NCBI GenBank assembly: GCA_040386355.1 | Contig: JAZKFP010000029.1 | Span: forward strand, 1 to 50,393 | Direction: 5' to 3' | DNA from: Pseudomonadota bacterium | GTDB taxonomy: Bacteria > Pseudomonadota > Gammaproteobacteria > Pseudomonadales > UBA6940 | DNA length: 50,393 bases | Part shown: positions 4,558 through 45,223 of the stretch, one piece after another | Layout: each line of letters opens with the position of its first letter | Numbering within the stretch: the first letter of the stretch is position 1 | Program-made: the position numbers and the translations under genes | Notes under the pieces: model-generated | What the model was told of the DNA's origin: nothing | The model's database searches: none | What the model saw: the letters and a program-made list of their open reading frames with translations, nothing else

Positions 4558-4809
4558 ATGGTTCAGGTAATAATCAACGTAAAGCAGTGGGGCAATAATC
4601 TAGGCGTAAGACTTCCTGCAGCAATTGCCAATACTTTGCATTTGTATGCTAATCAACAAGTTTGTATGACTGTTGAAGATAAACGCGTAATTATCACGCC
4701 TATTATTCAAGAAGAATCAACTCTTGCTGCAAAACTTGCACAATTTGATCGTGTAAAACATAGCGGAGAAGTAATGATAACGCAGCCAGTTGGGAGGGAG
4801 ATTTGTTAA
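4558..4809 (+). CDS. mazE: MazE/AbrB-family antitoxin
   Basis: VKQWGNNLGVRLP motif. GAGG RBS before ATG 4558. Overlaps the toxin start. Confidence 0.88.
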   Translation: MVQVIINVKQWGNNLGVRLPAAIANTLHLYANQQVCMTVEDKRVIITPIIQEESTLAAKLAQFDRVKHSGEVMITQPVGREIC

Positions 4810-5189
4810 AAACTGCTTCTAAAGCTAAGAAAAAATCTCAGTGGGTGCCAGATCGAAAAGATATTATTTGGATTAACTGTAGCCCCCAAGTTGGGCAAGA
4901 AATGCAAAACATACATCCATTTTTAGTCCTGTCTCCCAAAGCTTTTAATGATGTGACTTCAATAGTCATTGGGCTTCCAATGACTACCGCTGAATATAAT
5001 TCGGATAATCCTTTCGCTGTTCAAGTTGGTTTAATAAAGTCTAGTAAATCAAAAAAAAGCTATGTTCTCTGCCATCAACCAAAATCTTTTGATTGGCTAA
5101 CACGAGGTGCTAAACCCCATCCACTAAAAACACTTTCAGATGATCTGTTTGAAAAAGTTAGTAAGTGCTTACATCAAATTATCTTTTAA
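4803..5189 (+). CDS. mazF: MazF/PemK-family endoribonuclease toxin
   Basis: WVPDRKDIIWIN..PQVGQEM...HPFLVLSPKAFN, GLPMTT and HQPKSFDW motifs. Confidence 0.9.
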   Translation: MLKTASKAKKKSQWVPDRKDIIWINCSPQVGQEMQNIHPFLVLSPKAFNDVTSIVIGLPMTTAEYNSDNPFAVQVGLIKSSKSKKSYVLCHQPKSFDWLTRGAKPHPLKTLSDDLFEKVSKCLHQIIF

Positions 5190-5206
5190 GACCACCTAAC
5201 TTGAAG

Positions 5207-5250
5207 AATCTCACATAATCTCACATAATCTCACATAAGTAATGTGGGGT
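5207..5250. repeat. 3x tandem AATCTCACAT plus one degenerate inverted copy upstream of Fic gene
   Basis: Exact copies at 5207, 5217 and 5227; inverted atgtgggg at about 5242-5249. Confidence 0.85.
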
Positions 5251-5255
5251 TAAAA

Positions 5256-6332
5256 ATGGATTGGCTAAATTTTCGATTAAGCACACGTTTGAATATGCCA
5301 GCGGTTTTGGTAGAAAACCTGTATTCAAAAATTGCTGAAATAGATGCTGTAAAAAATACGTTTCAACTATCTCATAAGCTGTTGCCGCAAACTATTAATC
5401 GTCTTACTCAATCAGTGATTGTCACTTCAACAGGATCTTCCAATCGAATTGAAGGCAATGCATTAACCGATGATGAAGTAGAAGCGCTTTATAAATCGAT
5501 GAAAATCAGATCATTAAAATCCCGCGACGAACAAGAAGTAGTCGGATATCTTGAAACACTGACATTAGTATTCGATTCATACAAAGATATGGGTCTTTCT
5601 GAATCAATTATTTTGCAATTGCACAGTAATATGTTGACACATAGCGAAAAAGATCAACGTCATAAAGGTTTATATAAATTTGGATCTAATCGTGTAGAAG
5701 CAAAAGATCAAAGTGGAAATATTGTTGCAGTTATTTTCGATCCAACACGACCGCATCTAACGCCTAAAGCAATGCAAGAATTAGTAGGATGGTACGACTG
5801 GGCAAAACAAGAAAAATTTAAACATCCATTGTTGATCATTGCTAATTTTATTTTTGAATATTTAGCAATTCATCCATTTCAAGATGGTAATGGCCGTACC
5901 AGCCGTTTAATCACTAATTTATTGCTTTTACATCATGGTTATCAATTCGCATCGCTAGTTTCTCATGAAAAGCTTATCGAACAACGTAAAGCAGAATATT
6001 ATTTGGCATTAAATAAAACGCAAAAAACTTGGAAAACAGATCAAGAAGATATGTCATCTTGGCTGATATTTATTTTTGAAATATTTCACAAGCAAGCGCA
6101 AGAAGCACAAAAAATTCTTGAAAGCGATCAATTTGAATATTTGTTATCTGAAAAGCAATCCATCTTTTGGCAATGGGCAAAACAACAAAATGAATTTTCA
6201 CGCCAATCTGCAATACAGGCTTTGAATTTCCCCGCTCGAACGATTGAAGAAATCACAAAAAAATTTCTTACTATGAAAAAAATTGAACGATTGGGGCAGG
6301 GAAGGGCGGTGCGGTATCGTGTGATAAATTAA
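5256..6332 (+). CDS. Fic-domain protein (class II type) with C-terminal wHTH-like region
   Basis: HPFQDGNGRTSR catalytic motif, SNRIEG inhibitory-type motif and GQGRAVRY wing. Start codon uncertain (5244/5256). Confidence 0.92.
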   Translation: MDWLNFRLSTRLNMPAVLVENLYSKIAEIDAVKNTFQLSHKLLPQTINRLTQSVIVTSTGSSNRIEGNALTDDEVEALYKSMKIRSLKSRDEQEVVGYLETLTLVFDSYKDMGLSESIILQLHSNMLTHSEKDQRHKGLYKFGSNRVEAKDQSGNIVAVIFDPTRPHLTPKAMQELVGWYDWAKQEKFKHPLLIIANFIFEYLAIHPFQDGNGRTSRLITNLLLLHHGYQFASLVSHEKLIEQRKAEYYLALNKTQKTWKTDQEDMSSWLIFIFEIFHKQAQEAQKILESDQFEYLLSEKQSIFWQWAKQQNEFSRQSAIQALNFPARTIEEITKKFLTMKKIERLGQGRAVRYRVIN

Positions 6333-7049: not shown

Positions 7050-10000
7050 TCACATCACCGCACAGTTATCTTTTTGTTTAGCTTGAGCTGCTCTAATTCT
7101 TTGAAGTTCTAAATCATTTCGGTCAATTTGATTTTGTAAATCTTCTCTGGTTTCTGCTAGTTCTTCTCTTAAACGAGGTACTTGTTCTAGCAAAGGCGAG
7201 ATGACCATTAATAAATCTTCTAAAAATTGAGCGATTTTAATATTTCTAGGATGATTGCCAAATAATTCATTTTGCTCACGACGTAATTTGAAAACAGCTT
7301 CTTTTAATTGATTGCCTTCTTCAATAATTGCACTATTGATAAATGTTGTTTTAGGCCAACTAGGATTTTGTGAAGATAATTGATTGATTTTATTTTTGAA
7401 CTCATTAATTTGCTGATTCATCTCCACCATTTTCGCTTCCATTTTTTGGTGGTCTTCAAGGGTTGCGTGTGATGGCTTAGGCGCTGAAAGGTTTGCAGTT
7501 TGATTTGATCCACCTTCTGAAATACTACGCAATCCATCATAAGCGGAATAAGATACTGAATCCGTTGAACCGTCATCTGATTCTGCATCTGAAAAATGTG
7601 TAGTGGTTTCATGTAAGCTTTGAACTAAAGATAATGAAACTGCTACGTTCAATTCCTCATCGGAAGAGTTTGCTTTTTCTTCATCAGCGTCTCGAATAAC
7701 TCGTAAAAATGGTTTAGGCGATAATACTGATAATGGCGCCACACTAGGTGTGACTAATGAAATATTTGAAGAGGAAACTTCAACCTTTAAAGCATTTAAT
7801 AAAAATTCAATCTTTGCATCGATAGTGTTATTTTTTAAGTCAACATATTCTGTATTGTTGCTCACTGAACTATTAAAACATTTAAGTAAAGCCGATTGAA
7901 TAACATGTATATCATCTAATGCTTTGAGCATTGCGGGTGTTTCTTCTATTTGAATACCTATCAAAGCATTTTGCTGTGCAAATAATTTTAATTTAGCAAA
8001 TTGATCTTTTAACGTTTTAATACGTTCATTATCCGCATGATCTGCCCAATATTCTTTAGCACTTGCTACCGCTTGAGAGGCATGTGTACTCACCACATTC
8101 ATTTTAGTTCGCATGAATTTAGGCATGCGCGACTTAGCAGGAGCTGCAAGACTTGGTGAATTTGAGTTTGTTCCAAAATCATTAATACGATCAACATCCG
8201 AATGCAAACACACTAACTCGGCTAATTTTGCGGCGACGACTTCAAACTCATGACCTGCAAAACTAAACATTTCGGAAAAAGCACGCAAACTATTTAAAAC
8301 CTGAGTGTCTCGGTGATATATGTAAGCACTAGATATGGTAGATGCTACAGCGCTAACCCCTGGAATCGGAATCGCGATTGCAATTTTTTCTAAACCTTGT
8401 GCGGCTAACGACATAGCTGTGCTTAGTCCTTCAATATCCCCGGCAGCTTGTGAATTAAAACTTACTATTCCTGTACCTAGTACCTGCGCAACCATAAATT
8501 GCTTGGCAAAATAATGATTAAAATATTTATAATATTCTTGGATGATGGGATTTTTATCTTTTAATGAATTTGGTATATCCGACATAATACGTAATACATT
8601 ATCTAAGTTACCGCGTTCGTTATATATATGCTGAAAGTAATTTAAGACATCATGCTTTTGAAAAAAATCTGAAAATGTTGTGTGTATTAATGGGCCAAAT
8701 TTTTGAGAGTAATGGGTAGTGAGTTGTTGGGAGCTAATATGTTGGTATGTAGAGGAATAAAGTTTGTCTTCCTCGTGTTTAAAATTTTTAGAATCTTCCT
8801 GAGCAACCTTGTTTTCTGTTTCAGTAGATGAGTTGTTATCAGAGCTGACGGTGTTTTCAATTTTATAGATTAAGCAATTTGGATCATCAAGGTCACATGT
8901 CATAAGAGCGTTGAATTCTTTTTTAAATTTATCATCTTCTACTTTGACTTTTTCTTCCAATTTTTGAATGTATTGATTCTTTTCAAATTTAGTCGTAAGC
9001 AACTGCAAGTTTTGAACATGCTCGTCAATGTGGTTGCAATCAATATCTTTAATCTGATTTATTTGATTTTGAGATAGAATTTTTAATCTGTTTTTCTCTT
9101 TCAAATTTAAAGTTTTTTTGGCTTTGTTAATTATGCTTATTGTTGCCTTCAGCTTACTTACCTCCTGATCTCGGAATGTATTGCACTCCTTGAAATGTTT
9201 CCGTTTTAAATCGACTTCAGTAGCTGCTCGCGCAACGGAAAGACCTTCAGTTGTATCCCATATCCATCTGTCTGGATAGGAATGAAGTTGTCCTCGGTAT
9301 CTTTCATATAGTTTTTCAAAATCTAAACTAATTAAATCATTACACAATCGTTGAACAGACTTCGATGAAAGGCTGGGGGTAATTCCATAATCTAAAAGTA
9401 AATTTAATATCTTAAGGTTGTTTTTATATGCTGCAATATCGACACAGTTCATTAGAAAACCATTTACGTTGCAAATTTCCTGTACGTTTGCTCCGAAATT
9501 TTTAAGTTTTTTAATTGTTTCACTTTGATCTCCTTTTCCTTCATCGATTGACTCTACTGCAACAAAAAATGGTGTTTTATTACGTTTGCATTTTCTGTCA
9601 ATGATCATTCCGATTGCATGCAAACTTTGAATAGATATCACATGTCCATGAAAAGCTGCCTCATGAAGAGGTGAGCCACCGTGAATAGTTACTCCATTAG
9701 GTGAAGTGCCCTCTCCAAAAAATTCTAGATTTGCGCCAAGCCGTGCAAGTAAAATTAAAACCTTATGTTGACCATATCTGGCTGCAACATGGGCGGCAGT
9801 AGATGTTGCTTCGTCTAATGCATTAAGGTCGAAATTAACTTTATGTAAAATATGAATTACATTAGTGTTTCCATTCATTGCCGCATGGTGTATGGGTTTG
9901 AATCCAAATTTATCTTTAGCCTCTAAATCCACGTTCGCTAGTGAAATTAATAGTTCTAATGTTTTTGCTTTCCCAGTAATGGCGGCTAAATGAGCTAGAT

Positions 10001-10628
10001 TTTGATCTTTTTTATTTTTTTCATTAAAAGTAAAGTCCTTTTCATGAAGATATTTAATAATATTTTCATGCCCTTGTATTACAGCTGTTTGTAGTAATGT
10101 TTGATCATGTTTTTCAATTTTAGTTATTAAATTTGTTCCACCGTTCTCTATCAAGAACTTTACAATTTTTAAAGATCCACTGTTGACGGCAAAAAATAAT
10201 GCTGTGGAGTCATCTTTATCGTGTAAATTTAAGTCCGCCCCTAATTCCAATAAAACTTTTATGCAGTCATCTTTTCCTAAAAATGCTGCCAAATGAAGTG
10301 CAGTTATATCATCTTCAATTCTTTGGTCTGCATCCACCAGCTTCTCTGTGATCAACCATCTCAATTTTTCAGTATCACCATTTTCTACAGCTTCAAAAAA
10401 AGCCTTTACTGGATCAGCAGGCGTTGCTCTTTTTTGAACATTTTCCAATCGTGAAGTGATTGCTGGACTTCTAGGTGATTTTGGATCATTTGCATTAAAT
10501 GTAAGCGATGCAGCTGGCGCTTGTGAATCAATTCCCGATAAAGTTTGAGATTCTGGCTGGCTAATTGTTGAAAAAACTTCATTACTATTATTTCTAGAGG
10601 TGAAAATACTTTGAAATGCTGTGAACAT
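7050..10628 (-). CDS. Ankyrin-repeat, coiled-coil protein with C-terminal CaaX box (CAVM); putative secreted effector
   Basis: About 9-10 ankyrin repeats (TALHLAA, TALFFAV, KPIHHAA, SPLHEAA), S/T/P-rich N-terminus, heptad-rich C-terminus; ends tgt gcg gtg atg tga. Confidence 0.88.
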   Translation of the reverse strand: MFTAFQSIFTSRNNSNEVFSTISQPESQTLSGIDSQAPAASLTFNANDPKSPRSPAITSRLENVQKRATPADPVKAFFEAVENGDTEKLRWLITEKLVDADQRIEDDITALHLAAFLGKDDCIKVLLELGADLNLHDKDDSTALFFAVNSGSLKIVKFLIENGGTNLITKIEKHDQTLLQTAVIQGHENIIKYLHEKDFTFNEKNKKDQNLAHLAAITGKAKTLELLISLANVDLEAKDKFGFKPIHHAAMNGNTNVIHILHKVNFDLNALDEATSTAAHVAARYGQHKVLILLARLGANLEFFGEGTSPNGVTIHGGSPLHEAAFHGHVISIQSLHAIGMIIDRKCKRNKTPFFVAVESIDEGKGDQSETIKKLKNFGANVQEICNVNGFLMNCVDIAAYKNNLKILNLLLDYGITPSLSSKSVQRLCNDLISLDFEKLYERYRGQLHSYPDRWIWDTTEGLSVARAATEVDLKRKHFKECNTFRDQEVSKLKATISIINKAKKTLNLKEKNRLKILSQNQINQIKDIDCNHIDEHVQNLQLLTTKFEKNQYIQKLEEKVKVEDDKFKKEFNALMTCDLDDPNCLIYKIENTVSSDNNSSTETENKVAQEDSKNFKHEEDKLYSSTYQHISSQQLTTHYSQKFGPLIHTTFSDFFQKHDVLNYFQHIYNERGNLDNVLRIMSDIPNSLKDKNPIIQEYYKYFNHYFAKQFMVAQVLGTGIVSFNSQAAGDIEGLSTAMSLAAQGLEKIAIAIPIPGVSAVASTISSAYIYHRDTQVLNSLRAFSEMFSFAGHEFEVVAAKLAELVCLHSDVDRINDFGTNSNSPSLAAPAKSRMPKFMRTKMNVVSTHASQAVASAKEYWADHADNERIKTLKDQFAKLKLFAQQNALIGIQIEETPAMLKALDDIHVIQSALLKCFNSSVSNNTEYVDLKNNTIDAKIEFLLNALKVEVSSSNISLVTPSVAPLSVLSPKPFLRVIRDADEEKANSSDEELNVAVSLSLVQSLHETTTHFSDAESDDGSTDSVSYSAYDGLRSISEGGSNQTANLSAPKPSHATLEDHQKMEAKMVEMNQQINEFKNKINQLSSQNPSWPKTTFINSAIIEEGNQLKEAVFKLRREQNELFGNHPRNIKIAQFLEDLLMVISPLLEQVPRLREELAETREDLQNQIDRNDLELQRIRAAQAKQKDNCAVM

Positions 10629-11157: not shown

Positions 11158-11224
11158 AAACTCAGACATCATATTGAAAGAATAAAATTTGAGCCCCCTT
11201 TTTTAAAAGGGTGTGGAGGTTTTT

Positions 11225-14200
11225 ATGGGAATGACAACGTCGGCTTCTTTAACACCTGTGGCAACCCCTATTGGAAATCCTTTTTTTTCAATGGAAGTAG
11301 AAGCACTTGAAGTAAAAGCACCTGAGGTAACAATAGGCTTCATTAATTCTGATAATGGCCCCGATCCTACTAATGGCGCATTTCATGGTCCCTGCAAACA
11401 TACACTTAGGGGAGTGGCAAATCGTTTAAAAAATATCAAAAATAGCGTAAATGTTAGCATTGCTGAGAGTGATTACTATAAAAGTTGTCGAGCTGGCTTG
11501 AGCATAATGAGAGACAACATTAATAAAGCTTCTACCGCTTCCAAATGGCAGCCCGTCAAAAATTTTAATAAAGGACGCCATCAACCAGGTCGACAAGATG
11601 ACAGTTATTCCAGGGGAGTTAATATCACCAGAAATCAAATGATTGCTCAAGGAACTGAAAATAAGAAAACAATTAATCAATCCCTTTTACATCAATGTAT
11701 TGCCTATTTAAAAAAACTTGTTCACACACCATCTTCAAAAGTAGAAAATAGCTCAAGTGAAAATCCAGAACATTGCCATACCGATTTGTCAAAACAATTG
11801 GATGTATCCACACCTTGGCGGTCATTAACTGTACAGCAAAAAAAACGATTTAACTCACAGGTAGAACACAATAGACAAAAATTGTTTTCTAACAATATTG
11901 GCAACAGTGAAATTAATCAAAACCTAGAAAATATTGAAATTTTTAGACAATGCACTGATTATGTTTCTTTTAATGTTAAAGATCTCGGAACTCGATTAGC
12001 TCAATTAGAAAAAGTATTAAGTGATATTTCAATACGCACGTCACATAGCGAATTCGATAGTATTCGATTTGAATTTATTCGTAATATAAATAATGATTTT
12101 GGACTGGATTTAAAAAATGAAGATCTAACTACCAATGCGAACAATACGTTAGCCAAGCCAGCTTTTGAAGATAAATTAAAAAATGCTTTTGAAAAAAGAT
12201 TATATGGTGCAGCTATCGTAACAACAGCTTTTGCATACGCTGATGCACTCAATCACATCCCTTCAGCTGAAGAATTATTAGACCCTCAATTGTTTGCCGA
12301 TCATTATGTGTGTGAAGCCTTAACAGGAGATGGATTCAGATATTTTGCAACACCTGCTAAACCAAATGCTGATTGCATTTCCGAAGGTCAAGTTTCTTGG
12401 CAGCACTATATTGATTACCGAGCATCTCAAGTATTGAAATATCGCGTTGCAAATGTTGTAGCAAAAGATATTGAAGGCCAAATGTCTGATAAAAAGAAAT
12501 GGAATATTTTGAGAACTAATGGATACAGTTATAACGTGGCTGATGATATAGGCGGTAGTTATGGCGCAGCCGCAAATAATCCTTTTCGCGCATGGACCCA
12601 ATTTTTAGATGTCGTGATGTCTCTTTCAGAAAAAGAATTTGAGCAATTAAGAAAAGGTGAAGAAAAAGCGACTTTATTAATGGGGCCCTGTGGAGCACAA
12701 CAAGCGGTTGGTAAAATGTTGGGTGCGCCTATTTTTGCACTTGAACATAGTAGTGGACGTATGAGTCAACTTGGTCCGCATTGTGGTGATTTCCATGAAG
12801 TCAGTTTTCTACAAAAAAGCTTAGTAAATCGGACTTTTGATAAAATTCAACCTGGATCGGCGCATGACGCAATTATGCAAAAGTCTATTGCCAATTTAAC
12901 GCAAGAAGAGTTTGAAAAACACTCGCAAGACGCTTTTCCAAATAATTTACCTTCTTTTATGCTGGATCATTCTGAATTCAATGAAGGCGAAGTCAAAGTG
13001 CCGACATTAATTCGGCCAACGGATTGTGTGCATACTCAAGCCATATTAAATGTAAAAAATTTAGATCGACTGATGTCGCATAATTTGCGTCTTCTAACGC
13101 AAAACGACAAATTAAGAGCTACAGTTGATTCTCATGCTTGTTTAGTTGATGGGGCTGATCGCACATACATAAATGGCGATAAAACATCTGTTCAAGCGAT
13201 TGCCGATAATTCTAATGGACTAGCGCCTTATGATGTAACGGATTCCGAAACTACTATTGGGCGCGAAAAATTAATTGTTGAATCTTTAGCAATTTTAGAA
13301 AAGATTCTTGATGATCGGCCTGAAATAGTTCGAGCTGTATATGCACAGCATCATGATGACGCAAGTTGGGGCAGTACAAAAAATGCGATACTTCCTGCGG
13401 AAAATAATCCTGGTACTAGTACTCATGGTCATGCAGAAGAAGGGTCAAGATTAGCTTACAATCCGATTATTGTTCATGTACAGGCTTTAGAAGCTGCACT
13501 TATAAATGATAATCGTCGATCAATAGAAATGAAGGTTAGAATTCGAAGAAACGCTGATATTCTTGAAATCCGCCCCATCAGAAAAAACTCTTCACAAAGC
13601 AAATCATTTCCACATACCTTCCAATTTTATGAAACTATGTTTGGTTTGAGAAAACCTGGAGGGCCTTCCAAAGGAAGTTTTTTCCTAACGGAAGAAACCA
13701 AAGCATCGGTGAAACAAACTATTAATAAATTATTATTTGATGATTTTATTGAAAGCCTACAAACAACTGTCCTAACAAATAACGATGAAGTTGTCGAAAA
13801 GTTTGACAAGCAAATTTCGAAATTAGAAGAGATTCAAAAAATATTCCAATCTAATGATTTAGCGGAAGTGGAATTTTTAGTGCGTTGCGGTTTTGATCAT
13901 TATTATCATGAAAATTTAATTTTTGAATTTAAAAAGGTGTTTTCATGTGAAAATAATATTGTTGATTTATTGAAGAGCGAGCGAGAAAAAGTAAAAGATT
14001 GGCCAATTTCTGTGAGACAAAGCAGAGAAAATTCTACAGCTTCAGTGGTTTCAAATAAGTCTACAGAAGAAAATAATATCTTTTTAAGAACTTTAATAGC
14101 TGTTTTTGGATGTGTTGTGGACGCAACCGAAGAGGATAAAATCGAAGTCTTAGAAGGCAGCCACACAGAATCACCATCGACTCAAAAAAATGCTTTTCAA

Positions 14201-17200
14201 TATTTGGATGTTTCGCTCATTGAAGGCTTAAACAATATCGAAAATAAAATCTCAAATTCCATTGAAGCAGATGTAAAAAACATTCACTCAAATGTTTTAC
14301 AAATACCATTAAAGAATTCTATTCCTGAGGCAAATCGTAAAACTTTAACTTTAGAAAATATTTATAAGTCTGCTGACAGCATAAAAAAAGCCGATGATAA
14401 ATTGGTAGCAAAACAAGAAGTATTAAAGGAAGCGTGGGGTCAGCTACACGCTGAAAGCTTATTATCTTTAATTGAGAAATCAACAAAAAAAATTCTTAGT
14501 TTAAATGAAGAAGGTCCTAATGTTGTTAAGGGTCTTTTTGAGGCGACAGAGGCAAATCAGAATAAAATATTTAACAGTATTGTTCATCAGCTGGAAGTAA
14601 AATTGTCATATGGAGTTATCAATGATAAAGAAGATCAGATAATAAGAGCTTTTATAAAAATTTTAAAGTCTACCCATCTTTCTACCATTCAAGTTGCTAA
14701 TAATCATGATAGCCAATTATTAAAAGACCTTAAATTAAAAGTTGAAAATTCATTTTCTGCAGACCCAAGTTTTCAGTTGTATGATCAAATAAAAGATTTG
14801 CCAGATTTGGTAAAATATAAAGCATTTACTGATGAAAAAAATGACGATAGTTTTGATACTAGAAAATTTGATGAATTTTGTGACGAAATTAAAAAAATTA
14901 CGGGTGAAGTTCGCCTGTTTTTAAATTTTGCAATTGATGCTGGTGCAGCATCGGAAAATTTTCATCAAACTCTTGGTGGAAATGAGCGTAATGATAAACT
15001 TAAAGAAATTGACGGCATTCAATTTAGAGCAGATCCTAAAACTGCCTCTTATTCTCAAAATGAAAACACTTCTTTCTCTATTCCCAGAAGACTGCCTGGT
15101 TTAGTAGGTGTAGGAGGGGTGATAGGTCAGGCAGCTACCCTAACCTCAACGGTTGCTAGTGGTGCAGGAAAATTTCTTGCTGGCATTTCACCGGTTGTAA
15201 GTGGTTTGTTTGGAGCAGTCTTGGTGGGTGTCGGGTCAGAAGCGATTCATAAAGCACGCATTTCAATGCGAAAGTTACCTGAGCAGTTACTAATTAAAAA
15301 GGAAAGTTTTGAAAATCAAAAAATAACTTATGAAGAATTGCAAACAGTCGTTAATCGAATTGATTCAAAAATTGCTAAAAATGTTCAAGATAAACAAAAA
15401 TTAGCATCAAAGGTCGAAGCATTTTCAAACGATCAAAATAATCGCGCACTGGAAACTGAAATTAATGATTTACGAGCAGTAATTAACGAATTTAATTCTT
15501 CTGAAGCGATTAAAACAAAAGAAATATTACAACATCATTTTATTAGAGCTGCTGCAGATTTAGAAAAATTGCAAACAGAAATTAAGAGTTTATTGCGGGA
15601 AAGAAATGATAATTGGATTAATGGGTATTTAATTGGAGGCATGTATATAGCTGCAGGCGCTCTAACCATGACAGGATCAGCAATTGCACTTTCAGGTGCC
15701 TTGACTGTAGCTTCACCCGCTATATTTGGTATAAATTTGGCGGCAAATTGTTTAGTGCTTGCTATTTCTGGAATTTCTATTCTGAAAAACTATCGAGATG
15801 GTTTATATAAAAATGAAACTCATATAGTTTTTGAAGAAGAAGGCTTTAGTGCCGATGGTAATAATAAAGTATTAAATGCTACGTTTGTTCGAGAAAAAAA
15901 CTATACCAAAAAGATAATAAATACAGATTATTATTATGATGATCTTACCAGTAAGTGGAAAAATAAAAATGGTCAAGAACAGGAACCGATTAACGAAGTG
16001 AAAAATGATAATGCCTTCTTTTTAGAAAACGAAGGAATTTTTCAAATTATTAAAAATGATAAAGTAGTTAAGGTCGACTATTACGGCCATGAAGTCGAAC
16101 TAAAAAAGGATAACGCCGGCAATGCAATTCCCAACACGTATATTCGAAAAAAATCTGGTGATGCTATTGCACGAGTCGAGTTAAGAAAATCTTTTATGCC
16201 CAGTCTGCGCGGCAGAGATGCGCAGGTTTTAGTTCGGGTTACTAATCAAATGCTTGCCCACGAAGAAGCGGTGAAGCATTGGATGGGATTGGCTGCAGCA
16301 ACCGCCTCAATCATTGCTGTTTCAGTGGCTTATTATAGTTTTGGTGCAGCGACTATGGGTGTAGGTAGTGTTGCCCTGGCGCCATTGACTACCTTACCTC
16401 TCATGATTTGGTCAGCGCATCATATTCATAAATTGTTTGTTGATGTAGGTCCACGGTTAGCTGCAACTGGATCTCGACATAATTTAGATGGTTTGCACGT
16501 TCACACAAATAGATTGTTATCTAAAACGGATCTTACAGGATCAAAAAACTCTTCTAATGAAGCAGCTAAATTACTTTCTGGTTTGCCAGCTGTGCTGAAT
16601 GAAAAAACTGATGAATCAGGTAAAGCGTTAAATATAAGTGCAAAAAATAAAGCGCTTGAGGGAGCTGTTATTCAAAAGAATATGCGACATGGTCATTTAC
16701 CAGGTCAATTCATTGGCTCTGACCAACGTATGAATTCTAATCGAAAAATTAACACTTTATTTGAAGGTTTTGTTAATGCTAATTTTACCGATCAAAAAAT
16801 TGTTGAAGAGTTAACTAAGAACTGGGAAAACCGCGACCAAAGAGATACGCGTGTTTTATCGGCCCTTATTCAAATTATGGATAGGTCGGCTCAAATAAGT
16901 TTAAACTCAAATCAGATAGAACTTTCGCATTTGCGTGCAGAAATTATTCATATTGATGAAACGATGAATGTGTTGAGTTTGGTCGACGATAATGAACAGT
17001 TAAAAGATTCTTTAAAAAAAGATTTAAATAAAAAATTAGCATTGCATGATCGGTCTTATGAAAGGATTCTTGCATCTCAAGAAGCGCTACAATCTATTCG
17101 CATTTTTAAATCGTATATTGCAAAATATAATTTTGAATTAGAAAAAGCAAAAAATTCGCCAGCATCTCAGGAGCAAATTAATCGCTTGGAAGCCGAATTT

Positions 17201-17767
17201 AAAAATAGATGCAACCAAGAAGTGATGAAGTTTATGGTCAAAACTCGTTGGATAACTCAAGTATTGCCCAGAGCACACTTTAAAGAAATGATTAATAAAA
17301 ATGATTCGCCTTTTCAAGTTGAGCAATATGGTAACAATCATCTTAAAACAGTAGATGTTAAATCTATTCACCTTCCCTGGAGTGAGTGGAAAGCTATCGC
17401 AGGTCACGATGCATGGTTAAATGAACTGCTCAATAATGGTAAAGCAATGCAATTGTTTTTTAATCTTGTAGTGCATACTATGCCTCAACAAGCAAGTTAC
17501 GAGGCAAACAAAATTTTTGAATCTGAGGCTCAAAGTAGAAGAGCCACGTCATATCGACAAATTGAATTTAACAACATTAAACCTAAAGCGGATTGGAGGT
17601 ATGACCTAGCCAAAATAACAGATAACCGGACAGAGGCAATGGTTAATTGGATTAACAAGCCTGGCTTAGCTACTAAAGGATGGGATGTAACCAAGCATCA
17701 ATTAGAGGGATTTAGGGATCGTTTGGATGGAATGAAGACTTCAGAACTTAGACCTACCTATGCATAG
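11225..17767 (+). CDS. Giant (about 2,180 aa) hypothetical protein with three Gly/Ala-rich hydrophobic segments and coiled coils
   Basis: Uninterrupted 6.5-kb ORF with GGAGG RBS before ATG 11225. Hydrophobic stretches at about 15091-15240, 15625-15783 and 16280-16420. No recognised family. Confidence 0.85.
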   Translation: MGMTTSASLTPVATPIGNPFFSMEVEALEVKAPEVTIGFINSDNGPDPTNGAFHGPCKHTLRGVANRLKNIKNSVNVSIAESDYYKSCRAGLSIMRDNINKASTASKWQPVKNFNKGRHQPGRQDDSYSRGVNITRNQMIAQGTENKKTINQSLLHQCIAYLKKLVHTPSSKVENSSSENPEHCHTDLSKQLDVSTPWRSLTVQQKKRFNSQVEHNRQKLFSNNIGNSEINQNLENIEIFRQCTDYVSFNVKDLGTRLAQLEKVLSDISIRTSHSEFDSIRFEFIRNINNDFGLDLKNEDLTTNANNTLAKPAFEDKLKNAFEKRLYGAAIVTTAFAYADALNHIPSAEELLDPQLFADHYVCEALTGDGFRYFATPAKPNADCISEGQVSWQHYIDYRASQVLKYRVANVVAKDIEGQMSDKKKWNILRTNGYSYNVADDIGGSYGAAANNPFRAWTQFLDVVMSLSEKEFEQLRKGEEKATLLMGPCGAQQAVGKMLGAPIFALEHSSGRMSQLGPHCGDFHEVSFLQKSLVNRTFDKIQPGSAHDAIMQKSIANLTQEEFEKHSQDAFPNNLPSFMLDHSEFNEGEVKVPTLIRPTDCVHTQAILNVKNLDRLMSHNLRLLTQNDKLRATVDSHACLVDGADRTYINGDKTSVQAIADNSNGLAPYDVTDSETTIGREKLIVESLAILEKILDDRPEIVRAVYAQHHDDASWGSTKNAILPAENNPGTSTHGHAEEGSRLAYNPIIVHVQALEAALINDNRRSIEMKVRIRRNADILEIRPIRKNSSQSKSFPHTFQFYETMFGLRKPGGPSKGSFFLTEETKASVKQTINKLLFDDFIESLQTTVLTNNDEVVEKFDKQISKLEEIQKIFQSNDLAEVEFLVRCGFDHYYHENLIFEFKKVFSCENNIVDLLKSEREKVKDWPISVRQSRENSTASVVSNKSTEENNIFLRTLIAVFGCVVDATEEDKIEVLEGSHTESPSTQKNAFQYLDVSLIEGLNNIENKISNSIEADVKNIHSNVLQIPLKNSIPEANRKTLTLENIYKSADSIKKADDKLVAKQEVLKEAWGQLHAESLLSLIEKSTKKILSLNEEGPNVVKGLFEATEANQNKIFNSIVHQLEVKLSYGVINDKEDQIIRAFIKILKSTHLSTIQVANNHDSQLLKDLKLKVENSFSADPSFQLYDQIKDLPDLVKYKAFTDEKNDDSFDTRKFDEFCDEIKKITGEVRLFLNFAIDAGAASENFHQTLGGNERNDKLKEIDGIQFRADPKTASYSQNENTSFSIPRRLPGLVGVGGVIGQAATLTSTVASGAGKFLAGISPVVSGLFGAVLVGVGSEAIHKARISMRKLPEQLLIKKESFENQKITYEELQTVVNRIDSKIAKNVQDKQKLASKVEAFSNDQNNRALETEINDLRAVINEFNSSEAIKTKEILQHHFIRAAADLEKLQTEIKSLLRERNDNWINGYLIGGMYIAAGALTMTGSAIALSGALTVASPAIFGINLAANCLVLAISGISILKNYRDGLYKNETHIVFEEEGFSADGNNKVLNATFVREKNYTKKIINTDYYYDDLTSKWKNKNGQEQEPINEVKNDNAFFLENEGIFQIIKNDKVVKVDYYGHEVELKKDNAGNAIPNTYIRKKSGDAIARVELRKSFMPSLRGRDAQVLVRVTNQMLAHEEAVKHWMGLAAATASIIAVSVAYYSFGAATMGVGSVALAPLTTLPLMIWSAHHIHKLFVDVGPRLAATGSRHNLDGLHVHTNRLLSKTDLTGSKNSSNEAAKLLSGLPAVLNEKTDESGKALNISAKNKALEGAVIQKNMRHGHLPGQFIGSDQRMNSNRKINTLFEGFVNANFTDQKIVEELTKNWENRDQRDTRVLSALIQIMDRSAQISLNSNQIELSHLRAEIIHIDETMNVLSLVDDNEQLKDSLKKDLNKKLALHDRSYERILASQEALQSIRIFKSYIAKYNFELEKAKNSPASQEQINRLEAEFKNRCNQEVMKFMVKTRWITQVLPRAHFKEMINKNDSPFQVEQYGNNHLKTVDVKSIHLPWSEWKAIAGHDAWLNELLNNGKAMQLFFNLVVHTMPQQASYEANKIFESEAQSRRATSYRQIEFNNIKPKADWRYDLAKITDNRTEAMVNWINKPGLATKGWDVTKHQLEGFRDRLDGMKTSELRPTYA

Positions 17768-37864: not shown

Positions 37865-38719
37865 GGGCGTGTCGTCAGTTAAGCAAGATAGTGACAGCCG
37901 CCAAATGAATCGCCCCTAAAAAATTTTGCGCGGTTTTATCGTACCGCGTAGCAATCGCTCTAAATTGTTTTAATTTACAAAAAAAATTCTCAATTAAATG
38001 CCGCGCTTTGTATAAAACTTTATCGTGCAGTTTCGGATCAATACTATTTTTCTTCGCCGGAATAACAGCATGAATACCACGGTGCTTTAACGGCTCAATC
38101 ACTTTCTCAAACGCATAATAGGCTTTGTCCGCAAGCACCGCGTTGGCTTTTATCGACGGCAACAATGTTGTTGCACCATGAACATCGTGCACCGCTCCAG
38201 CCGTCAAATAAAATCCCGTCGGATTTCCCAACGCATCACACGTGCTATGAATCTTTGTACTTAATCCGCCAGCGCTGCGTCCAATAGCTTGAGCATCTTT
38301 TTCTTTTTTTTCGCTCCCGCACTGTGCTGATGGGCACGCACAATCGTACTGTCAATCATCGCGTACTCATTATCCGCATCAAGAGATAACTGGGTGAATA
38401 TCTTTTTCCAAACCCCCGATTCAGCCCACCGGCTGTGACGCCTGTGAATATTCTTCCAATCCCCAAAACGCTCCGGTACATCACGCCACGCACACCCAGA
38501 ACGGTACCGATATAAAACCGCTTCAATAAACAAACGATTATTATTCGCTCGACCTCCCACGTGGCCTTCGCGTCCAGGCAATAATCCTTCAATCTTGATC
38601 CATTGATCATCTCGTAATCCGTAGCGTCTTCCTGACATACATCACTCCAGCTTTTATTCGAAGCCAGTCTTACACCATATTTTTAGACAATTTGCAAATG
38701 CCTATCTGACGACACGCCC
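37865..38719 (-). mobile_element. IS5-family (IS427-group-like) insertion sequence, apparently intact
   Basis: Perfect 14-bp TIRs GGGCGTGTCGTCAG flanked by TA on both sides. Confidence 0.93.
37875..38638 (-). CDS. IS5-family transposase in two ORFs joined by a -1 frameshift
   Basis: OrfA (IDSTIVRAHQHSAGAKK) and OrfB (GRSAGGLSTKIH, LADKAY, RHLIENFF, IATRYDK) overlap at an A8G slippery run near 38303-38311. Confidence 0.9.
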
Positions 38720-39304: not shown

Positions 39305-42300
39305 ATGAGTATTAAAAAAAATACAAATAAAAAAATACTGAGAAAATTTTCAATTTTGTTTTTTCTTTGTGGAATTTCGGTTTCAACATTTGCGAATGCA
39401 AATGCAGCCTTAACTTGTGAAGTTGGTAAAGTTTTATTTTATCAAAAAAGATTTAATATATCGGAAATTAAAATCAAAAATAATAGTTTATTACCAATTT
39501 CGAATTGGCAAATAAGTCTCACGTTTCAAACTAAAATTTATCCCACATCGGTTAAATTATTTCATGGTGCGCGAAAAGGTGACTACTCTATTTTACTTTC
39601 GGGAAAAGGAGTGCACAAGACAATCGATAGTAATGAATCTTTAATTGGTGGATTGCGAGGTCACTTTCAAGGCCCATTAAACGAGCCTACATGTGCCATT
39701 GTGAGTCCGGCACCTGTATCAAATGTTCCTGCACCAACATTATCTCCAACGCCGACTGTAACTCCAACGCCGACTGTAACTCCAACGCCGACTGTAACTC
39801 CAACGCCAACAGTGATGCCAACCTCTGTACCGACAGTTCCAACACCTGTGCCAACAGTTATGCCGACAGTTATGCCGACAGTTATGCCGACAGTAGCCCC
39901 AACGCCTGCGCCAACAGCTATGCCGACAGTAGCCCCAACGCCTGCGCCAACAGCTATGCCGACAGTAGCCCCAACACCTGCACCAACAGTTATGCCGACA
40001 GTAGCCCCAACACCAGTTCCGACTGTGATGCCGACAGTAGCCCCAACACCAGTTCCGACTGTGATGCCAACACCAATTGGAAATATTTCAAATGGTGTAT
40101 ATGTAATATATTCATTGTTTAGCAACAAAACGTTAGATGCTTCAAATCAAACCAATAATGTACATCAATGGGCAGCACACGGGGAAAGCAATCAAAGTTG
40201 GAAGGTAACTCAAATAAATAGTGATTTATACCAATTTGAGAACGTTAAACATCGCGACTGTTTGCATGTTGCAAATGGAAGTTATGAAAATGGTGCCAAT
40301 ATTCAAAGAGAGCCATGTTCAGTTGCAAAGTTAGAGCAGATTTTCCGTATTGAGCCTAAGGATAATGGAACCTATGCAATCGTAAATAATGAAACAAATA
40401 AAGTGGTTGACGTTTCATGGAATCACAATGGACCGTCTATGTTAGATGGGCAAAATATTCATCAATGGATTTATGTAGGAATAGCGAATCAAAAATGGAA
40501 ATTTGAAAAAGTTTCTGATGTTAATCCAGGCTTACCGACACCTGTGCCAACGGTAGCTCCAACGCCTTCACCAACGGTAATGCCAACGGTAGCACCGACA
40601 CCTGCACCAACGGTAATGCCAACGGTAGCGCCGACACCTGCACCAACTGTAATGCCGACACCTGCACCAACGGTAATGCCAACGGTAGCACCGACACCTG
40701 CACCAACTGTAATGCCGACACCTGCACCAACGGTAATGCCAACGGTAGCTCCAACGCCTTCACCAACGGTGATGCCGACAGTAGCGCCAACGCCTTCACC
40801 AACGGTGATGCCGACAGTAGCGCCAACGCCTGTGCCAACGGTAGCACCGACACCTGCACCGACAGTAGCCCCAACCCCTAACGCAACTGTAATTCAAGCA
40901 AAAATTGCTCAGGGTAAAGTTGAATTTGATAAGCAATGTGCAGTTTGCCATGGAGCTGGGGCAATCTCTGCCATACAAATCTATAGCCTTGAAGGTGTAA
41001 AACAAAAAACATTTGCTGAAGTACAGAACAAAATTTTGCTAACGATGCCTTTTGGTAATCCAAATGCATGCGGCGTAGAATGTTCTGAAGTTGCTGCATA
41101 CTACGTAATGAGCATTCATAATCCAGCTGCTATAGGTCAAAATCCTGCGCCCGCACCAACGCCCACTCCAGTAGCCACTCCAATTCCATTAAGTTTTAAA
41201 AATGTAAATGCTCCACTACTCAGAATGACACGGCCGCAATTAAATAATACTTTATCTGATTTGATAGGTTCACCTGTTGCGATTGCTGAAAACTATATTC
41301 CTGCTGATTCGGTTTTCGGAATATTTCCATCAAATATAACTAGCGTCGGGGAAGGCGTATTTGATAGGTATCATGATTTAGCTGAAGCTGCTAGCCGATT
41401 GGCAGTGGCCAAGCTGAATACATTGTTACCGTGCCCAAAATCTGAGGGAGTAAATTGCGCAAAAGAATTTATTGAAAGCTTTGGTATGCGAGCTCTTAAA
41501 AGACCTCTAACTGCAAATCAAGTAACACGTTATTTGGAAATATTTTCTGCTCAAAACAATTTTGATTTGGGTGTTGAACATATGCTTACAGCATTGTTTC
41601 AATCGCCATATTTTATTTATCACATTGAATTAGGTTCTGGGGCTGTCAATAACCAAACACAATCAGTTCCACTTACTAATTTTGAATTAGCCTCACGCCT
41701 TTCCTATTTTTTAACAGGGGCGGCTCCAGATCAAATTTTGTTAACAGCGGCAGCTCAAGGACAGTTAAATAATGCTGCTGGTTTACGGCAACAGGCAGAA
41801 CGATTATTAGCAAATCCAAAAGTTCGCAAGCAGCTCGCAAATTTTCATAATGAACTATTTAAATTACAAACTTTAAATAGTACAAACAGTGGTGCGCCCA
41901 ACAGTGCATTAATTGGGGCCATGGCTTTAGAAACCGAAAACTTTGTATCCGATATTATTTTAAATAATAAAGGGTTTAAAGAATTGATGACGCAGACAAC
42001 TTCCTACCCTCAAGCCAATTTATGGCCAATCTACAATATTAATCCGAATCAACCTGCGAATACTCCAATTGAAATTGGCCGAGCTGGAATATTGTCACAA
42101 GCCGCATTTCTATCAGCTTATTCATTGAATGCACAAACGAATCCAGTGAAACGTGGTGCGTTAGTTCTTAAAAATTTACTCTGTCAAAATCTTGCACCAC
42201 CTGATAATGCAAATGCAGTTGCAGCGGCTAATCAAGCACGTTCAACTTTTGATACAGCTCGAGATTGGCTTGAGACTTCCGTTAAAGGGCCTGCATGTGA

Positions 42301-42661
42301 TGGCTGTCATCAAAAAATTAATCCAGTTGGATTGGTATTTGAAAAATTTGATGGGACTGGAAAAGCGCGTACTTTGGAAAATGGCAACCCGATTAGTACG
42401 CAAGGCTCGGTACCTAGTATTCCAGGTCTGAACGAGGTATTTGAAGATAGTGATAATTTTCTTGCAACTATTTCTGAGCTACCCGCCGCAAACGATTGCT
42501 ATGCCAAACAATGGATGGATTATGCGCTGGGATATTCTTCAACAACTGCAGATGCTTATAGTGTTCAGCAAATCCAAAATACTTTTAAAGAAAATAATGA
42601 AATTCGAGAATTATTAATCAACATTGTTCTTTCGCGATCATTTGGCTCTAAATCAATTTAA
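39305..42661 (+). CDS. Secreted modular protein: CBM2-like, Pro/Thr linker, ricin-B lectin, Pro/Thr linker, cytochrome c, DUF1587/1595/1592/1588/1585-type block
   Basis: Signal peptide, QxW repeats (HQW, QSW, QKW), CAVCH...MP, RMTRPQLNNTLSDL, FGMRALKRPL, QSPYFIY, ELASRLSYFL, PVKRG...LLC, CDGCH..INPVG..FE.FD..G. Confidence 0.85.
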   Translation: MSIKKNTNKKILRKFSILFFLCGISVSTFANANAALTCEVGKVLFYQKRFNISEIKIKNNSLLPISNWQISLTFQTKIYPTSVKLFHGARKGDYSILLSGKGVHKTIDSNESLIGGLRGHFQGPLNEPTCAIVSPAPVSNVPAPTLSPTPTVTPTPTVTPTPTVTPTPTVMPTSVPTVPTPVPTVMPTVMPTVMPTVAPTPAPTAMPTVAPTPAPTAMPTVAPTPAPTVMPTVAPTPVPTVMPTVAPTPVPTVMPTPIGNISNGVYVIYSLFSNKTLDASNQTNNVHQWAAHGESNQSWKVTQINSDLYQFENVKHRDCLHVANGSYENGANIQREPCSVAKLEQIFRIEPKDNGTYAIVNNETNKVVDVSWNHNGPSMLDGQNIHQWIYVGIANQKWKFEKVSDVNPGLPTPVPTVAPTPSPTVMPTVAPTPAPTVMPTVAPTPAPTVMPTPAPTVMPTVAPTPAPTVMPTPAPTVMPTVAPTPSPTVMPTVAPTPSPTVMPTVAPTPVPTVAPTPAPTVAPTPNATVIQAKIAQGKVEFDKQCAVCHGAGAISAIQIYSLEGVKQKTFAEVQNKILLTMPFGNPNACGVECSEVAAYYVMSIHNPAAIGQNPAPAPTPTPVATPIPLSFKNVNAPLLRMTRPQLNNTLSDLIGSPVAIAENYIPADSVFGIFPSNITSVGEGVFDRYHDLAEAASRLAVAKLNTLLPCPKSEGVNCAKEFIESFGMRALKRPLTANQVTRYLEIFSAQNNFDLGVEHMLTALFQSPYFIYHIELGSGAVNNQTQSVPLTNFELASRLSYFLTGAAPDQILLTAAAQGQLNNAAGLRQQAERLLANPKVRKQLANFHNELFKLQTLNSTNSGAPNSALIGAMALETENFVSDIILNNKGFKELMTQTTSYPQANLWPIYNINPNQPANTPIEIGRAGILSQAAFLSAYSLNAQTNPVKRGALVLKNLLCQNLAPPDNANAVAAANQARSTFDTARDWLETSVKGPACDGCHQKINPVGLVFEKFDGTGKARTLENGNPISTQGSVPSIPGLNEVFEDSDNFLATISELPAANDCYAKQWMDYALGYSSTTADAYSVQQIQNTFKENNEIRELLINIVLSRSFGSKSI
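39700..40075 (+). repeat. Coding tandem repeats, Pro/Thr linker 1
   Basis: 18-nt ccaacgccgactgtaact x3, 12-nt PTVM units and 36-nt PTVAPTPAPTxM units. Confidence 0.95.
40535..40885 (+). repeat. Coding tandem repeats, Pro/Thr linker 2
   Basis: Repeated PTVMPTVAPTP(A/S) units. Confidence 0.95.
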
Positions 42662-42697
42662 TACATTTGAACGAATTACATGTTGTCGGAGTTGAAA

Positions 42698-44130: not shown

Positions 44131-45223
44131 GGATTCAACTCTGAAGTGCATAACTCAACCTGAGTAGAGAAGTTGGTCAGCTGCCTGTAGTCTGATCGAT
44201 TTTTCTCCGGCAAGAGATTATGAGATGAGACGATACAATCAACTGACCTACGAACAACGATGCCAGATTGAAGTGTTAAATAAAAGCTATTTTACGCACG
44301 CTGCGATCGCGCAAGCGATGGGTGTTCATCAATCTACCATTTCCCGAGAATTACAGCGCAACACAGGATTACGTGGATATCGTCATGATCAAGCCCAGCG
44401 CCGAACGTGCACACGCCGTCGAGCGACACACCTGTGCGTAAAAATGACAGACTCATTTATCGATGAAATTGAAGATAAGCTATATCAGCGCTGGAGTCCG
44501 GAACAAATCAGTGGCTGGTTCAAAACAGAGAAAAATATTCGCATCAGTCATGAGCGCATCTATCAATACATTTGGAATAATAAATACGACGGTGGTGATT
44601 TACACGCGTATTTAAGACGTCGTGGTAAAAAATACCAATTCCGCGGCAGCAATGGTAAAACCAGCCGAGGCCAGATTAAAAACCGAGTGAGCATTGATCA
44701 ACGTCCCAAGATTGTGGAAGAAAAAACGCAGATAGGGCATTGGGAAATTGACACGATGATTGGCAAAAACCATAGCGGTGCCTTGGTAACGATTGTGGAA
44801 CGCGTTACGCGATTTACGGTGTCAACGCGCGTGAATCGTAAAGATGCGCAAGGCGTTTGTGCTGCAACCATTCGATTGCTTTTACCTTACAAAGATCAGG
44901 TGTTGACGATTACGTCAGACAATGGAAAAGAATTTGCGTACCATGAGAAAATAGCCAAGGCCATAGAGTGTGATTTTTATTTTGCGCATCCGTATCATTC
45001 GCGGGAGCGCGGATTAAATGAAAATACTAACGGATTAATTAGGCAATATTTTCCAAAACAAACGGATTTTAAAAAAGTCAGTCAGAGAGAAGTAGTTCAG
45101 GCAATTGAGGCATTAAATAATTGGCCTAGAAAAGTGTTGGGCTTTAATACACCGAATGATGTAATGCAAAAATATAAGGTGGCACAAGCTGCTTAATCCG
45201 TTATGCACTTCACTGTTGAATCT
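44131..45223 (+). mobile_element. IS30-family insertion sequence
   Basis: Imperfect 24-bp IRs ggattcaactctgaagtgcataac / gttatgcacttcactgttgaatct; exact ends uncertain by a few nt. Confidence 0.9.
44225..45196 (+). CDS. IS30-family transposase
   Basis: STISRELQRN, WSPEQIS, GHWEIDT, SDNGKEF and NENTNGLIRQYFPK motifs. Confidence 0.96.
   Translation: MRRYNQLTYEQRCQIEVLNKSYFTHAAIAQAMGVHQSTISRELQRNTGLRGYRHDQAQRRTCTRRRATHLCVKMTDSFIDEIEDKLYQRWSPEQISGWFKTEKNIRISHERIYQYIWNNKYDGGDLHAYLRRRGKKYQFRGSNGKTSRGQIKNRVSIDQRPKIVEEKTQIGHWEIDTMIGKNHSGALVTIVERVTRFTVSTRVNRKDAQGVCAATIRLLLPYKDQVLTITSDNGKEFAYHEKIAKAIECDFYFAHPYHSRERGLNENTNGLIRQYFPKQTDFKKVSQREVVQAIEALNNWPRKVLGFNTPNDVMQKYKVAQAA

Follow-up and report, generated by a model that had tools for sequence, protein, structure and literature searches.

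Two ankyrin-repeat genes in a 50,393-nucleotide stretch of DNA from a gammaproteobacterial draft genome (contig JAZKFP010000029.1 of assembly GCA_040386355.1; the whole stretch is referred to below as the window) encode proteins that end in a CaaX lipid-anchor signal and share a conserved segment upstream of it. From the open reading frames (ORFs) and their translations, the first gene (7050..10628, minus strand) specifies a protein of 1192 residues with the C-terminus CAVM, here called P0001, and the second (20220..22724, minus strand) a protein of 834 residues with the C-terminus CCEIM, here called P0002. The domain marked by the shared segment, and the protein family to which it belongs, are considered real with high confidence. 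The favoured reading, which is judged about evenly poised between right and wrong, is that the segment forms the core of an undescribed all-alpha domain with no enzymatic role, which would serve effectors prenylated by the host as a scaffold or as a module close to the membrane; within this reading, confidence is fair that the proteins are effectors and low that the domain itself has a role at membranes.

An earlier note on this DNA had placed the likeness at 8200-8540 (minus strand) and 21170-21525, which correctly correspond to residues ~697-810 of P0001 and ~401-518 of P0002, and the segment proved to be truly conserved by BLASTP and by a shuffle test after removal of the ankyrins and tails. 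BLASTP aligns P0001 687-809 with P0002 390-518 (32/132 identical positions, or 24%, and 48% positives; 44.7 bits, E 2e-8), and Smith-Waterman comparison of the ankyrin-free and tail-free residues 640-945 and 335-625 gives a score of 106 versus 34.7 +/- 5.5 for shuffled sequences (z 13.0, Gumbel p 1.6e-8), a score that none of 2000 composition-preserving shuffles reached; for the core of the segment alone, z rises to 14.5. The similarity is also wider than first drawn, spanning about 230-300 residues, with the family profile enveloping P0001 669-939 and P0002 366-589 and the alignments extending P0002 to ~625. Among the shorter matches picked out by eye in the note, KALDDI/QAIQDV lies within the fifth conserved block of the domain, where A264 (counted from residue 640) is nearly invariant and most rows have an Asp three residues later. 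PKPS/PKPN and ELFG are matched as well, but they fall in the tails, where the similarity between P0001 and P0002 is collinear and weak (Smith-Waterman score 66 versus 40.5 +/- 6.8, reached by 7 of 1000 shuffles; p 0.004); between the tails of P0001 and its closest paralog, on contig C97, no homology was detected (p 0.097). A tail motif seen by eye across subfamilies, V-x-x-G-x-Q, was discarded: a profile built from eight tails of three subfamilies failed on 14 held-out tails, only one of which beat nearly all of its 100 shuffles (P0026, reached by 1 of 100, at a different kind of site), and in the window proteins the profile found no match in P0002 and one in P0001 that 25 of 100 shuffles equalled.

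The two proteins are laid out in parallel fashion. In P0001, a Ser/Thr/Pro-rich N-terminus is followed by ankyrin repeats, the conserved helical domain, a linker, a helical tail, and CAVM; in P0002, the Ser/Thr/Pro-rich N-terminus, ankyrins, and conserved domain are followed by a Ser/Thr linker, a coiled coil, and CCEIM. The first ~60-70 residues of both are rich in Ser, Thr, Pro, and Asn and lead into the ankyrin repeats. Given that P0001 16-69 aligns with P0002 5-55 within the first BLASTP segment, the ATG at 10628 is favoured as the P0001 start over the recorded, shorter 1132-residue model. The ankyrin region of P0001 (9399..10397; residues ~78-410) comprises five to six stretches in which Pfam Ank families exceed their cut-offs (Ank_2, E 9.2e-39) and is aligned by BLASTP with the ankyrins of P0002, which Pfam places at 22107..22550 (residues ~59-206; Ank_2, E 4.6e-24). 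From the profile envelope and the alignments, the conserved all-alpha domain occupies 7812..8624 in P0001 (residues 669-939) and 20850..21629 in P0002 (residues 366-625, the last block being taken from the alignments); the P0001 segment used in the alignments, residues 640-945, corresponds to 7794-8711. Within the P0001 domain, a moderately hydrophobic IPIPG helix-turn-helix (8304..8396; residues ~745-775) represents the PFxG block of the family. The P0001 tail (7065..7811) consists of an acidic, Ser-rich linker and helical segments, and its CaaX box lies at 7053..7064; the P0002 box, CEIM, lies at 20223..20234 with a second Cys before it, and all of these features are on the minus strand. Of the coiled coil that the earlier note had given to the architecture, the P0002 part held: a heptad-repeat segment at 20274..20399 (minus strand; residues 776-817), just ahead of the lipid-anchor signal, scores 0.76 in a crude heptad test versus 0.62 for the 95th percentile of shuffle maxima, and a second segment (708-744) also exceeds the shuffle threshold. 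The P0001 part did not, its best score in the same crude test (0.62 at 1053-1088) falling below the shuffle threshold of 0.68.

No named family was found to cover the segment, in agreement with the earlier note, since Pfam and NCBIfam match only the ankyrins in both window proteins at E <= 1. Across 26 of the 32 family representatives (the window proteins having been scanned separately and four short fragments left out), Pfam places no family over the shared domain at E <= 0.01, and at E <= 10 none of its families occurs in more than two of 25 domain-only sequences. Against the sequences of the PDB, a six-sequence profile returned nothing under E 0.1, and a 25-sequence profile returned one marginal match, to the Habc domain of syntaxin-1A (E 0.011, 18.3 bits, 70 residues, profile positions 119-189). 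Word-indexed protein searches with P0001 region 630-930 and with the 25-sequence profile recovered the query itself alone, and the ESM Atlas held nothing at or above 0.8 for P0001 640-945 or for residues 225-460 of a diatom relative, its structure rows having template-modelling (TM) scores of 0.25-0.37. A description of the domain was not found in the literature, which is a weak negative because an unnamed domain is hardly searchable by words.

AlphaFold2 models built with the family alignments are all-helical for both proteins, with a predicted local distance difference test score (pLDDT) of 69.1 and a predicted TM score (pTM) of 0.60 for P0001 640-945 (model 1), and a pLDDT of 76.4 and pTM of 0.73 for P0002 380-625 (model 2). 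Comparison of these models with known structures, as the note had proposed, yielded no significant neighbour: the best Foldseek hits in the PDB had E 0.33 for model 1 and 0.086 for model 2, the best VIA-align Z scores were 5.3 and 5.2 (an unrelated viral protein, under the background stated for helical models), and the BFVD library of viral structures gave a best E of 0.75. Five conserved blocks make up the domain, namely an aromatic-striped YYxxFxxxF helix ending in SG, a helix-PFxG-helix hairpin separated from it by a variable loop, a T-x3-N helix, a KLAxxxCL helix, and a late KALxD helix. Blocks one, four, and five are modelled confidently, above 90, and the hairpin has the lowest confidence in each model (pLDDT below 50 for P0001; 52-65 for P0002, where helices 60-85 and 89-106 meet at an IPFAG turn), even though P115 of the PFxG block is nearly invariant in 31 rows. 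The invariant and near-invariant positions are confined to Y, F, G, P, N, A, and L; a conserved catalytic set of His, Cys, Asp, Glu, Lys, or Ser was sought in the alignments and none was found, so an enzyme is unlikely.

The family is rare, and its members are modular. Exhaustive HMMER searching of 1,835,955,588 representative sequences with the six-sequence profile found 32 proteins at E <= 1e-3, 16 of them at <= 1e-10. The domain is present in one of 400 other genomes sampled from the order (G168, at two loci, E 1.8e-13 and 1.2e-10, both proteins being labelled by NCBI as derived from Gammaproteobacteria metagenome-assembled genomes) and in one of 399 genomes scored from the class (G607, E 4.6e-6; one further genome was unscored), and in neither of the two other genomes of the same taxonomic family. 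Scans with a subfamily alignment recovered no relative among 45 pattern matches in genome contigs or among 167 in metagenome contigs. The source genome itself, a 3.12-Mb draft assembly (330 contigs, completeness 85%, contamination 2.66%), has six copies: the two window genes, one gene each on contigs C97 and C294, and two remnants decayed by stop codons, on C315 and C161. The family is expanding and decaying inside one genome. The C294 gene encodes ankyrins and lacks a CaaX box, whereas the C97 gene (250-3186, minus strand), the closest to P0001, ends in CLIS. The latter is split into ORFs of 161 and 815 residues by a single in-frame stop within an ankyrin repeat, which could reflect a pseudogene, a sequencing error, or read-through; the decayed copies on C315 and C161 carry TGA and TAA stops, and one of them persists as a recorded protein of 85 residues (P0009).

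The partner modules vary from member to member. Ankyrins exceed the Pfam cut-offs in ten members (P0001, P0002, the C294 protein, P0005, P0012, P0013, P0016, P0017, P0023, and P0045), whereas P0038 carries leucine-rich repeats (LRRs) of the RI type (LRR_6, E 1e-22), the G607 protein Sel1 repeats (E 2.2e-24), and P0024 a NEL E3 ligase domain (PF14496, E 6.2e-8, 32.7 bits versus a cut-off of 24); IpaH-like LRRs in P0010 and tetratricopeptide repeats in P0025 and P0026 were assigned by eye or from the source name, and Pfam does not confirm them. On the G168 contig C307, an LRR_6 ORF (3-734) overlaps the start of a domain ORF (679-2640), and a repeated peptide segment is common to both, the pair likely being a frameshifted or repeat-variable LRR-domain fusion. 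Past the domain, members continue into a low-complexity Ser/Thr/Gln/Pro linker and then helical tails. The arrangement proposed in the note, observed here as a Ser/Thr/Pro-rich N-terminus, ankyrins, a PFxG helical domain, a low-complexity linker, a helical tail, and a CaaX box, is real and recurs in relatives; the word effector is to be read as putative. A domain tree of 25 rows, rooted at the midpoint only, resolves the subfamilies and leaves their order open (8/22 inner branches).

The CaaX signal is far more frequent than chance would produce. The 32 representatives divide into a clade of 10 diatom-type clusters and 22 others, and among the latter a Cys stands at position -4 in 10, where ~0.24 would be expected from a Cys content of 1.1% of residues. 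The ten endings are CAVM, CEIM, CLIS, CVIL, CTIA, CIIL, CVIS, CTVM, CSIF, and CVVS, the last taken from a longer member of its cluster; an apparent CaaX in P0011 was dropped because that sequence is a fragment ending inside the domain. In the domain tree, these ten cases are spread over five or more subfamilies, each with support of its own. A second Cys precedes the box (CC-aaX) in six of the ten, and a Lys-rich or polybasic run lies ahead of it in P0033 and P0027; such cysteines and Lys-rich runs are the 'second signals' of Ras-type proteins. Two members, P0028 and P0033, have the CaaX box without a coiled coil. Prenylation of CaaX-bearing effectors by the host is established for AnkB, PelH, and SifA, the last of which is also S-acylated (PMC4951486).

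With respect to the route of export, the source genome contains three FHIPEP genes (contigs C71, C3, and C158), which NCBIfam divides into one FlhA and two SctV, the latter exceeding the TIGR01399 cut-off of 692 bits at 936.5 and 816.4 bits. One FlhA and two SctV in a genome of ~3.1 Mb suggest two separate type III systems. SctV is also present in G168 and in both sister genomes of the window's family, and it is not present in G607. Searches of the source genome for the Dot/Icm markers DotH (PF12293), DotI (PF11393), and DotA (TIGR04346) gave no match, with the controls silent too and the genome 85% complete, such that absence is unproven; the type III needle family PF09392 likewise had no match there, its control again silent. 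Because two SctV genes are present and the Dot/Icm markers are unmatched, type III secretion is the likely route if the proteins are injected, a route that also fits the NEL and LRR partners of the relatives. Unlike effectors of the Legionella type, the window proteins are thus probably type III substrates.

Under the favoured reading, the Ser/Thr/Pro-rich N-terminus would direct export, and the variable N-terminal repeat module (ankyrins here; LRR, Sel1, or NEL elsewhere) would pick out a host protein. A farnesyl- or geranylgeranyl-transferase of the host would then lipidate the CaaX cysteine, with the neighbouring Cys of CC-aaX forms such as CCEIM perhaps being palmitoylated as well, and the lipidated C-terminus would become fixed to a host membrane. 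The conserved domain would act as a non-enzymatic core, lying against the membrane or on a conserved eukaryotic partner and holding the repeat module in place. Several observations weigh against this reading. Twelve of the 22 non-diatom clusters (several being fragments) lack a CaaX box. It is missing from all 10 diatom-type clusters too, from which it follows that the domain needs no lipid anchor; moreover, CEIM has an acidic residue at a1, which is atypical. The hairpin is short and borderline hydrophobic and fits a buried core as well as a membrane-facing element, P0001 gave no coiled-coil signal above its shuffles in the crude heptad test, and the Dot/Icm markers may yet be present. In addition, the genome is a draft in which the SctV contigs might be mis-binned, the secretion signals were judged by eye, and effector status was assigned from sequence alone.

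Of the competing explanations, the one to survive best, unlikely as it is, takes the domain for a soluble bundle of helices whose partner is a conserved eukaryotic protein and which never lies at a membrane, the hairpin forming part of its buried core. Conservation of a hydrophobic stripe is typical of bundle cores, and the hydrophobic run of the hairpin, 12-22 residues long, in most members lacks the length to cross a bilayer. That the diatom homologs keep the domain without a CaaX box is consistent with this explanation too. One version of it casts the protein as a trafficking factor in which a syntaxin-Habc-like bundle precedes a SNARE-like coiled coil and a lipid anchor: the sole near-threshold PDB match is the Habc domain of syntaxin-1A, the P0002 heptad segment lies shortly ahead of CCEIM, and a coiled coil followed by a lipid anchor resembles lipid-anchored SNAREs such as Ykt6. 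A bacterial precedent is the Legionella protein LseA, a CaaX-bearing mimic of Qc-SNAREs (PMC7542358). Nevertheless, the syntaxin match is marginal and covers 70 residues, syntaxin is missing from the fold-search rows, and no SNARE or syntaxin family of Pfam appears in the window proteins at E <= 1 or, at E <= 10, in the list of the 25 families that the 25 domain-only members match most often; P0028 and P0033, furthermore, possess a CaaX box and no coiled coil.

The membrane insertion or tethering raised in the earlier note fared less well. In its stronger form, which is considered improbable, the domain is itself membrane-active, the PFxG hairpin leaving the bundle to insert in the manner of ClyA-type alpha-pore-formers, Bcl-2/colicin-type bundles, or hairpin-anchored effectors and, together with the lipid anchor and coiled coil, to reshape, tether, or permeabilise membranes. 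In six of ten members tested, the hairpin is the most hydrophobic window (P0001, P0007, P0010, P0013, P0027, and P0028; in P0001 the top Kyte-Doolittle window, 1.61, is at residue 749), it is conserved yet the least confidently modelled part of the domain, and the co-occurrence of CaaX would put the family at membranes. The best Foldseek rows for model 2 are the ClyA pore and monomer, AhlC, MakE, BDLP, and Bcl-xL/Mcl-1; none is significant, their TM scores (0.10-0.19) and best E (0.086) are at noise level, and VIA-align Z stays below background, such that these rows are a lead and no evidence. Likewise, the 19-residue Kyte-Doolittle maxima of the ten members (1.05-1.85) are not consistently membrane-like, the runs in P0025 and P0028 are ~12 residues long and end in Asp or Lys, and a search for two adjacent bilayer-length hydrophobic segments, of the kind found in Inc and Tir proteins, found only the one run. 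For a transmembrane hairpin the run has too little length and varies too much; it fits a buried core helix or a shallow helix that faces the membrane.

The two weakest alternatives are both very improbable. A cryptic enzyme, with a new catalytic fold and an active site that 25-35 sequences do not make evident, would accord with the lack of any matched fold, with the widely conserved Thr and Asn four residues apart, and with the Asp of the last block, but no His, Cys, Glu, Lys, or Ser set is conserved, the invariant positions are all hydrophobic or structural, and P0024 already has an enzyme of its own, the NEL E3 ligase, beside the domain. Last comes the notion that the proteins are never injected and are cell-intrinsic or surface proteins of the bacterium with incidental CaaX-like ends and eukaryote-type repeats, to which the sequence-based nature of the secretion argument, the unmatched needle family, and the 12 of 22 bacterial clusters lacking CaaX lend something, and which is opposed by the excess of Cys at -4 with its second cysteines and polybasic runs, the lack of known CaaX prenyltransferases in bacteria, the Ank, LRR, Sel1, and NEL partners, the expansion and decay of copies in one genome, the presence of SctV in both type III-bearing carrier genomes tested, and the homologs in diatoms.

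Those homologs came from a check on protists that the earlier note had suggested, and three diatom species proved to carry the domain. One clade of 10 clusters, with support 100/100, includes the diatom proteins: P0023 is KAL7489902.1 of Cyclotella cf. meneghiniana; P0017 and P0039 are one gene of Cyclotella cryptica (CCRYP_020980 in EukProt, KAL3775202.1, on a 39-kb contig); and P0020 is the UniRef entry A0A7R9YXY3 of Pseudictyota dubia. The label that EukProt gives to the C. cryptica model seems, from what looks like a MAKER quality string, to describe one exon with UTRs. The diatom proteins consist of ankyrins, the domain, a coiled coil, and an additional C-terminal domain of their own. The diatom-type P0013, P0023, and P0039 have in common a conserved C-terminal region of ~150 residues ending in ...NLK, without a Pfam match, which also occurs in metagenome members of the clade. 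As bacterial contamination of these records is possible, their assignment to diatom genes, and the link with it, is putative; and because the deep branching of the tree is open, neither a direction of transfer nor a donor can be named. The corresponding suggestion of giant-virus relatives found no backing among BFVD structures or viral contigs: with the diatom-type protein, none of 18 pattern matches in viral contigs was a relative, and with the window domain the one match, of 27 residues in a low-complexity insertion, was taken as chance. A bolder extension, to which a small chance is given, would make the domain a membrane-active hairpin module common to type III-secreting marine gammaproteobacteria and diatoms, delivered to an algal or protist host and anchored by CC-aaX behind a coiled coil, with the PFxG hairpin tethering or remodelling membranes. 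If true, it would constitute a novel type of tether or SNARE-like mimic with a lipid anchor, taken over from diatom proteins or passed on to them, and the bacterium would be targeting stramenopile algae with an injectisome.

Repeat-bearing effectors that are prenylated by the host are a known kind, and several systems bear comparison. The Dot/Icm-delivered AnkB and 'Pel' effectors of Legionella pneumophila are likewise bacterial, and AnkB combines ankyrins with a C-terminal CaaX; for AnkB and PelH, farnesylation of the CaaX by the host anchors the protein to a host membrane (PMC4951486, PMC7542358). The window proteins, in contrast, lack an F-box (no F-box family of Pfam at E <= 1), and no counterpart of their central domain was found. 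They show no relation to Legionella ankyrin effectors beyond the ankyrins, the NCBIfam models for Dot/Icm ankyrin proteins (AnkY, AnkH, AnkX, and AnkG) scoring 24-69 bits versus cut-offs of 500-1400, and their genome carries two injectisome SctV genes, whereas the three Dot/Icm markers are unmatched. Salmonella SifA, a much smaller protein of the WxxxE fold, is a type III substrate with a C-terminal Cys motif, and the comparison concerns the anchoring principle only. Since the motif of SifA is geranylgeranylated and its neighbouring Cys S-acylated by the host (PMC4951486), CC-aaX is read here as a candidate signal for dual lipidation. LseA and eukaryotic syntaxins match the layout seen here, in which helices in the N-terminal part are followed by a coiled coil, a short spacer, and a lipid anchor (PMC7542358); the present family differs in that no SNARE-motif family is detected, the Habc match is sub-significant, and several CaaX members have no coiled coil. 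The type III effectors of the IpaH/SspH type, with NEL and LRR modules, display the same kind of shuffled architecture (NEL in P0024, LRR_6 in P0038), but the NEL of P0024 is N-terminal with the new domain after it, and the window proteins have neither NEL nor LRR. ClyA-family toxins and Bcl-2-like bundles, finally, share with the predicted structure a bundle of helices and a long helix-turn-helix with increased hydrophobicity; here the scores are at noise (E 0.086-2, TM 0.10-0.19), no sequence signal exists, and the hairpin is shorter and less hydrophobic.

The surroundings of the two genes contain further large or effector-like proteins. Divergent from the P0001 gene, an ORF of 2184 residues (11213-17767, plus strand) matches no Pfam family (best E 0.084) and has three long hydrophobic stretches rich in Gly, Ala, and Val that resemble membrane hairpins; it may encode another large effector or a translocator-like protein. 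It is followed by an ORF of 505 residues (17895-19412, plus strand) with a dozen RING/PHD zinc-finger matches below the cut-offs (E 0.003-0.07) and finger halves ~45 residues apart, a possible split RING-like E3 mimic. Four Fic-domain genes and one MazF/PemK toxin gene occur in the 50-kb window (4803-6332, 22930-24216, 25411-26529, and 48301-49557); one of these Fic genes (22930-23757) and an ORF of 138 residues lie directly upstream of the P0002 gene on the same strand, and the three may be co-transcribed. Transposase and integrase pieces bracket the effector-like genes (19550-19894, 38261-38638, and 44225-45196), comprising a 114-residue ORF that is integrase-core-like by eye, a DUF4096 IS4/5 piece, and an rve integrase, and the region from 4.8 to 25.5 kb looks like an accessory island beside rpoD-dnaG. 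Farther along (39305-44101, plus strand), a protein of 1118 residues combines ricin-B lectin repeats with PSD/PSCyt domains (DUF1585/1587/1588/1592/1595), and a DUF1552 (HXXSHH) protein follows it; this pair is best known from Planctomycetes and is unexpected in a gammaproteobacterial context.

Prenylated, repeat-bearing effectors have so far been encountered mainly in Legionella, with its type IV secretion, and in single cases such as SifA. The conserved domain itself appears to be undescribed, as do its occurrence with Ank, LRR, Sel1, and NEL modules, its association with CaaX in gammaproteobacteria that bear injectisomes, and its presence in diatoms, and a whole family would rest on this one domain in injectisome-bearing bacteria that are known only from draft and metagenome assemblies. 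Its fusion to ankyrins in three diatom species offers a concrete starting point for tracing gene flow, or molecular mimicry, between microalgae and bacteria. Should the domain be a scaffold only, it would still annotate ~30 orphan proteins; should it serve in membrane targeting or in trafficking, it would merit a Pfam family model as well and would represent a new tool for placing bacterial proteins on host membranes.

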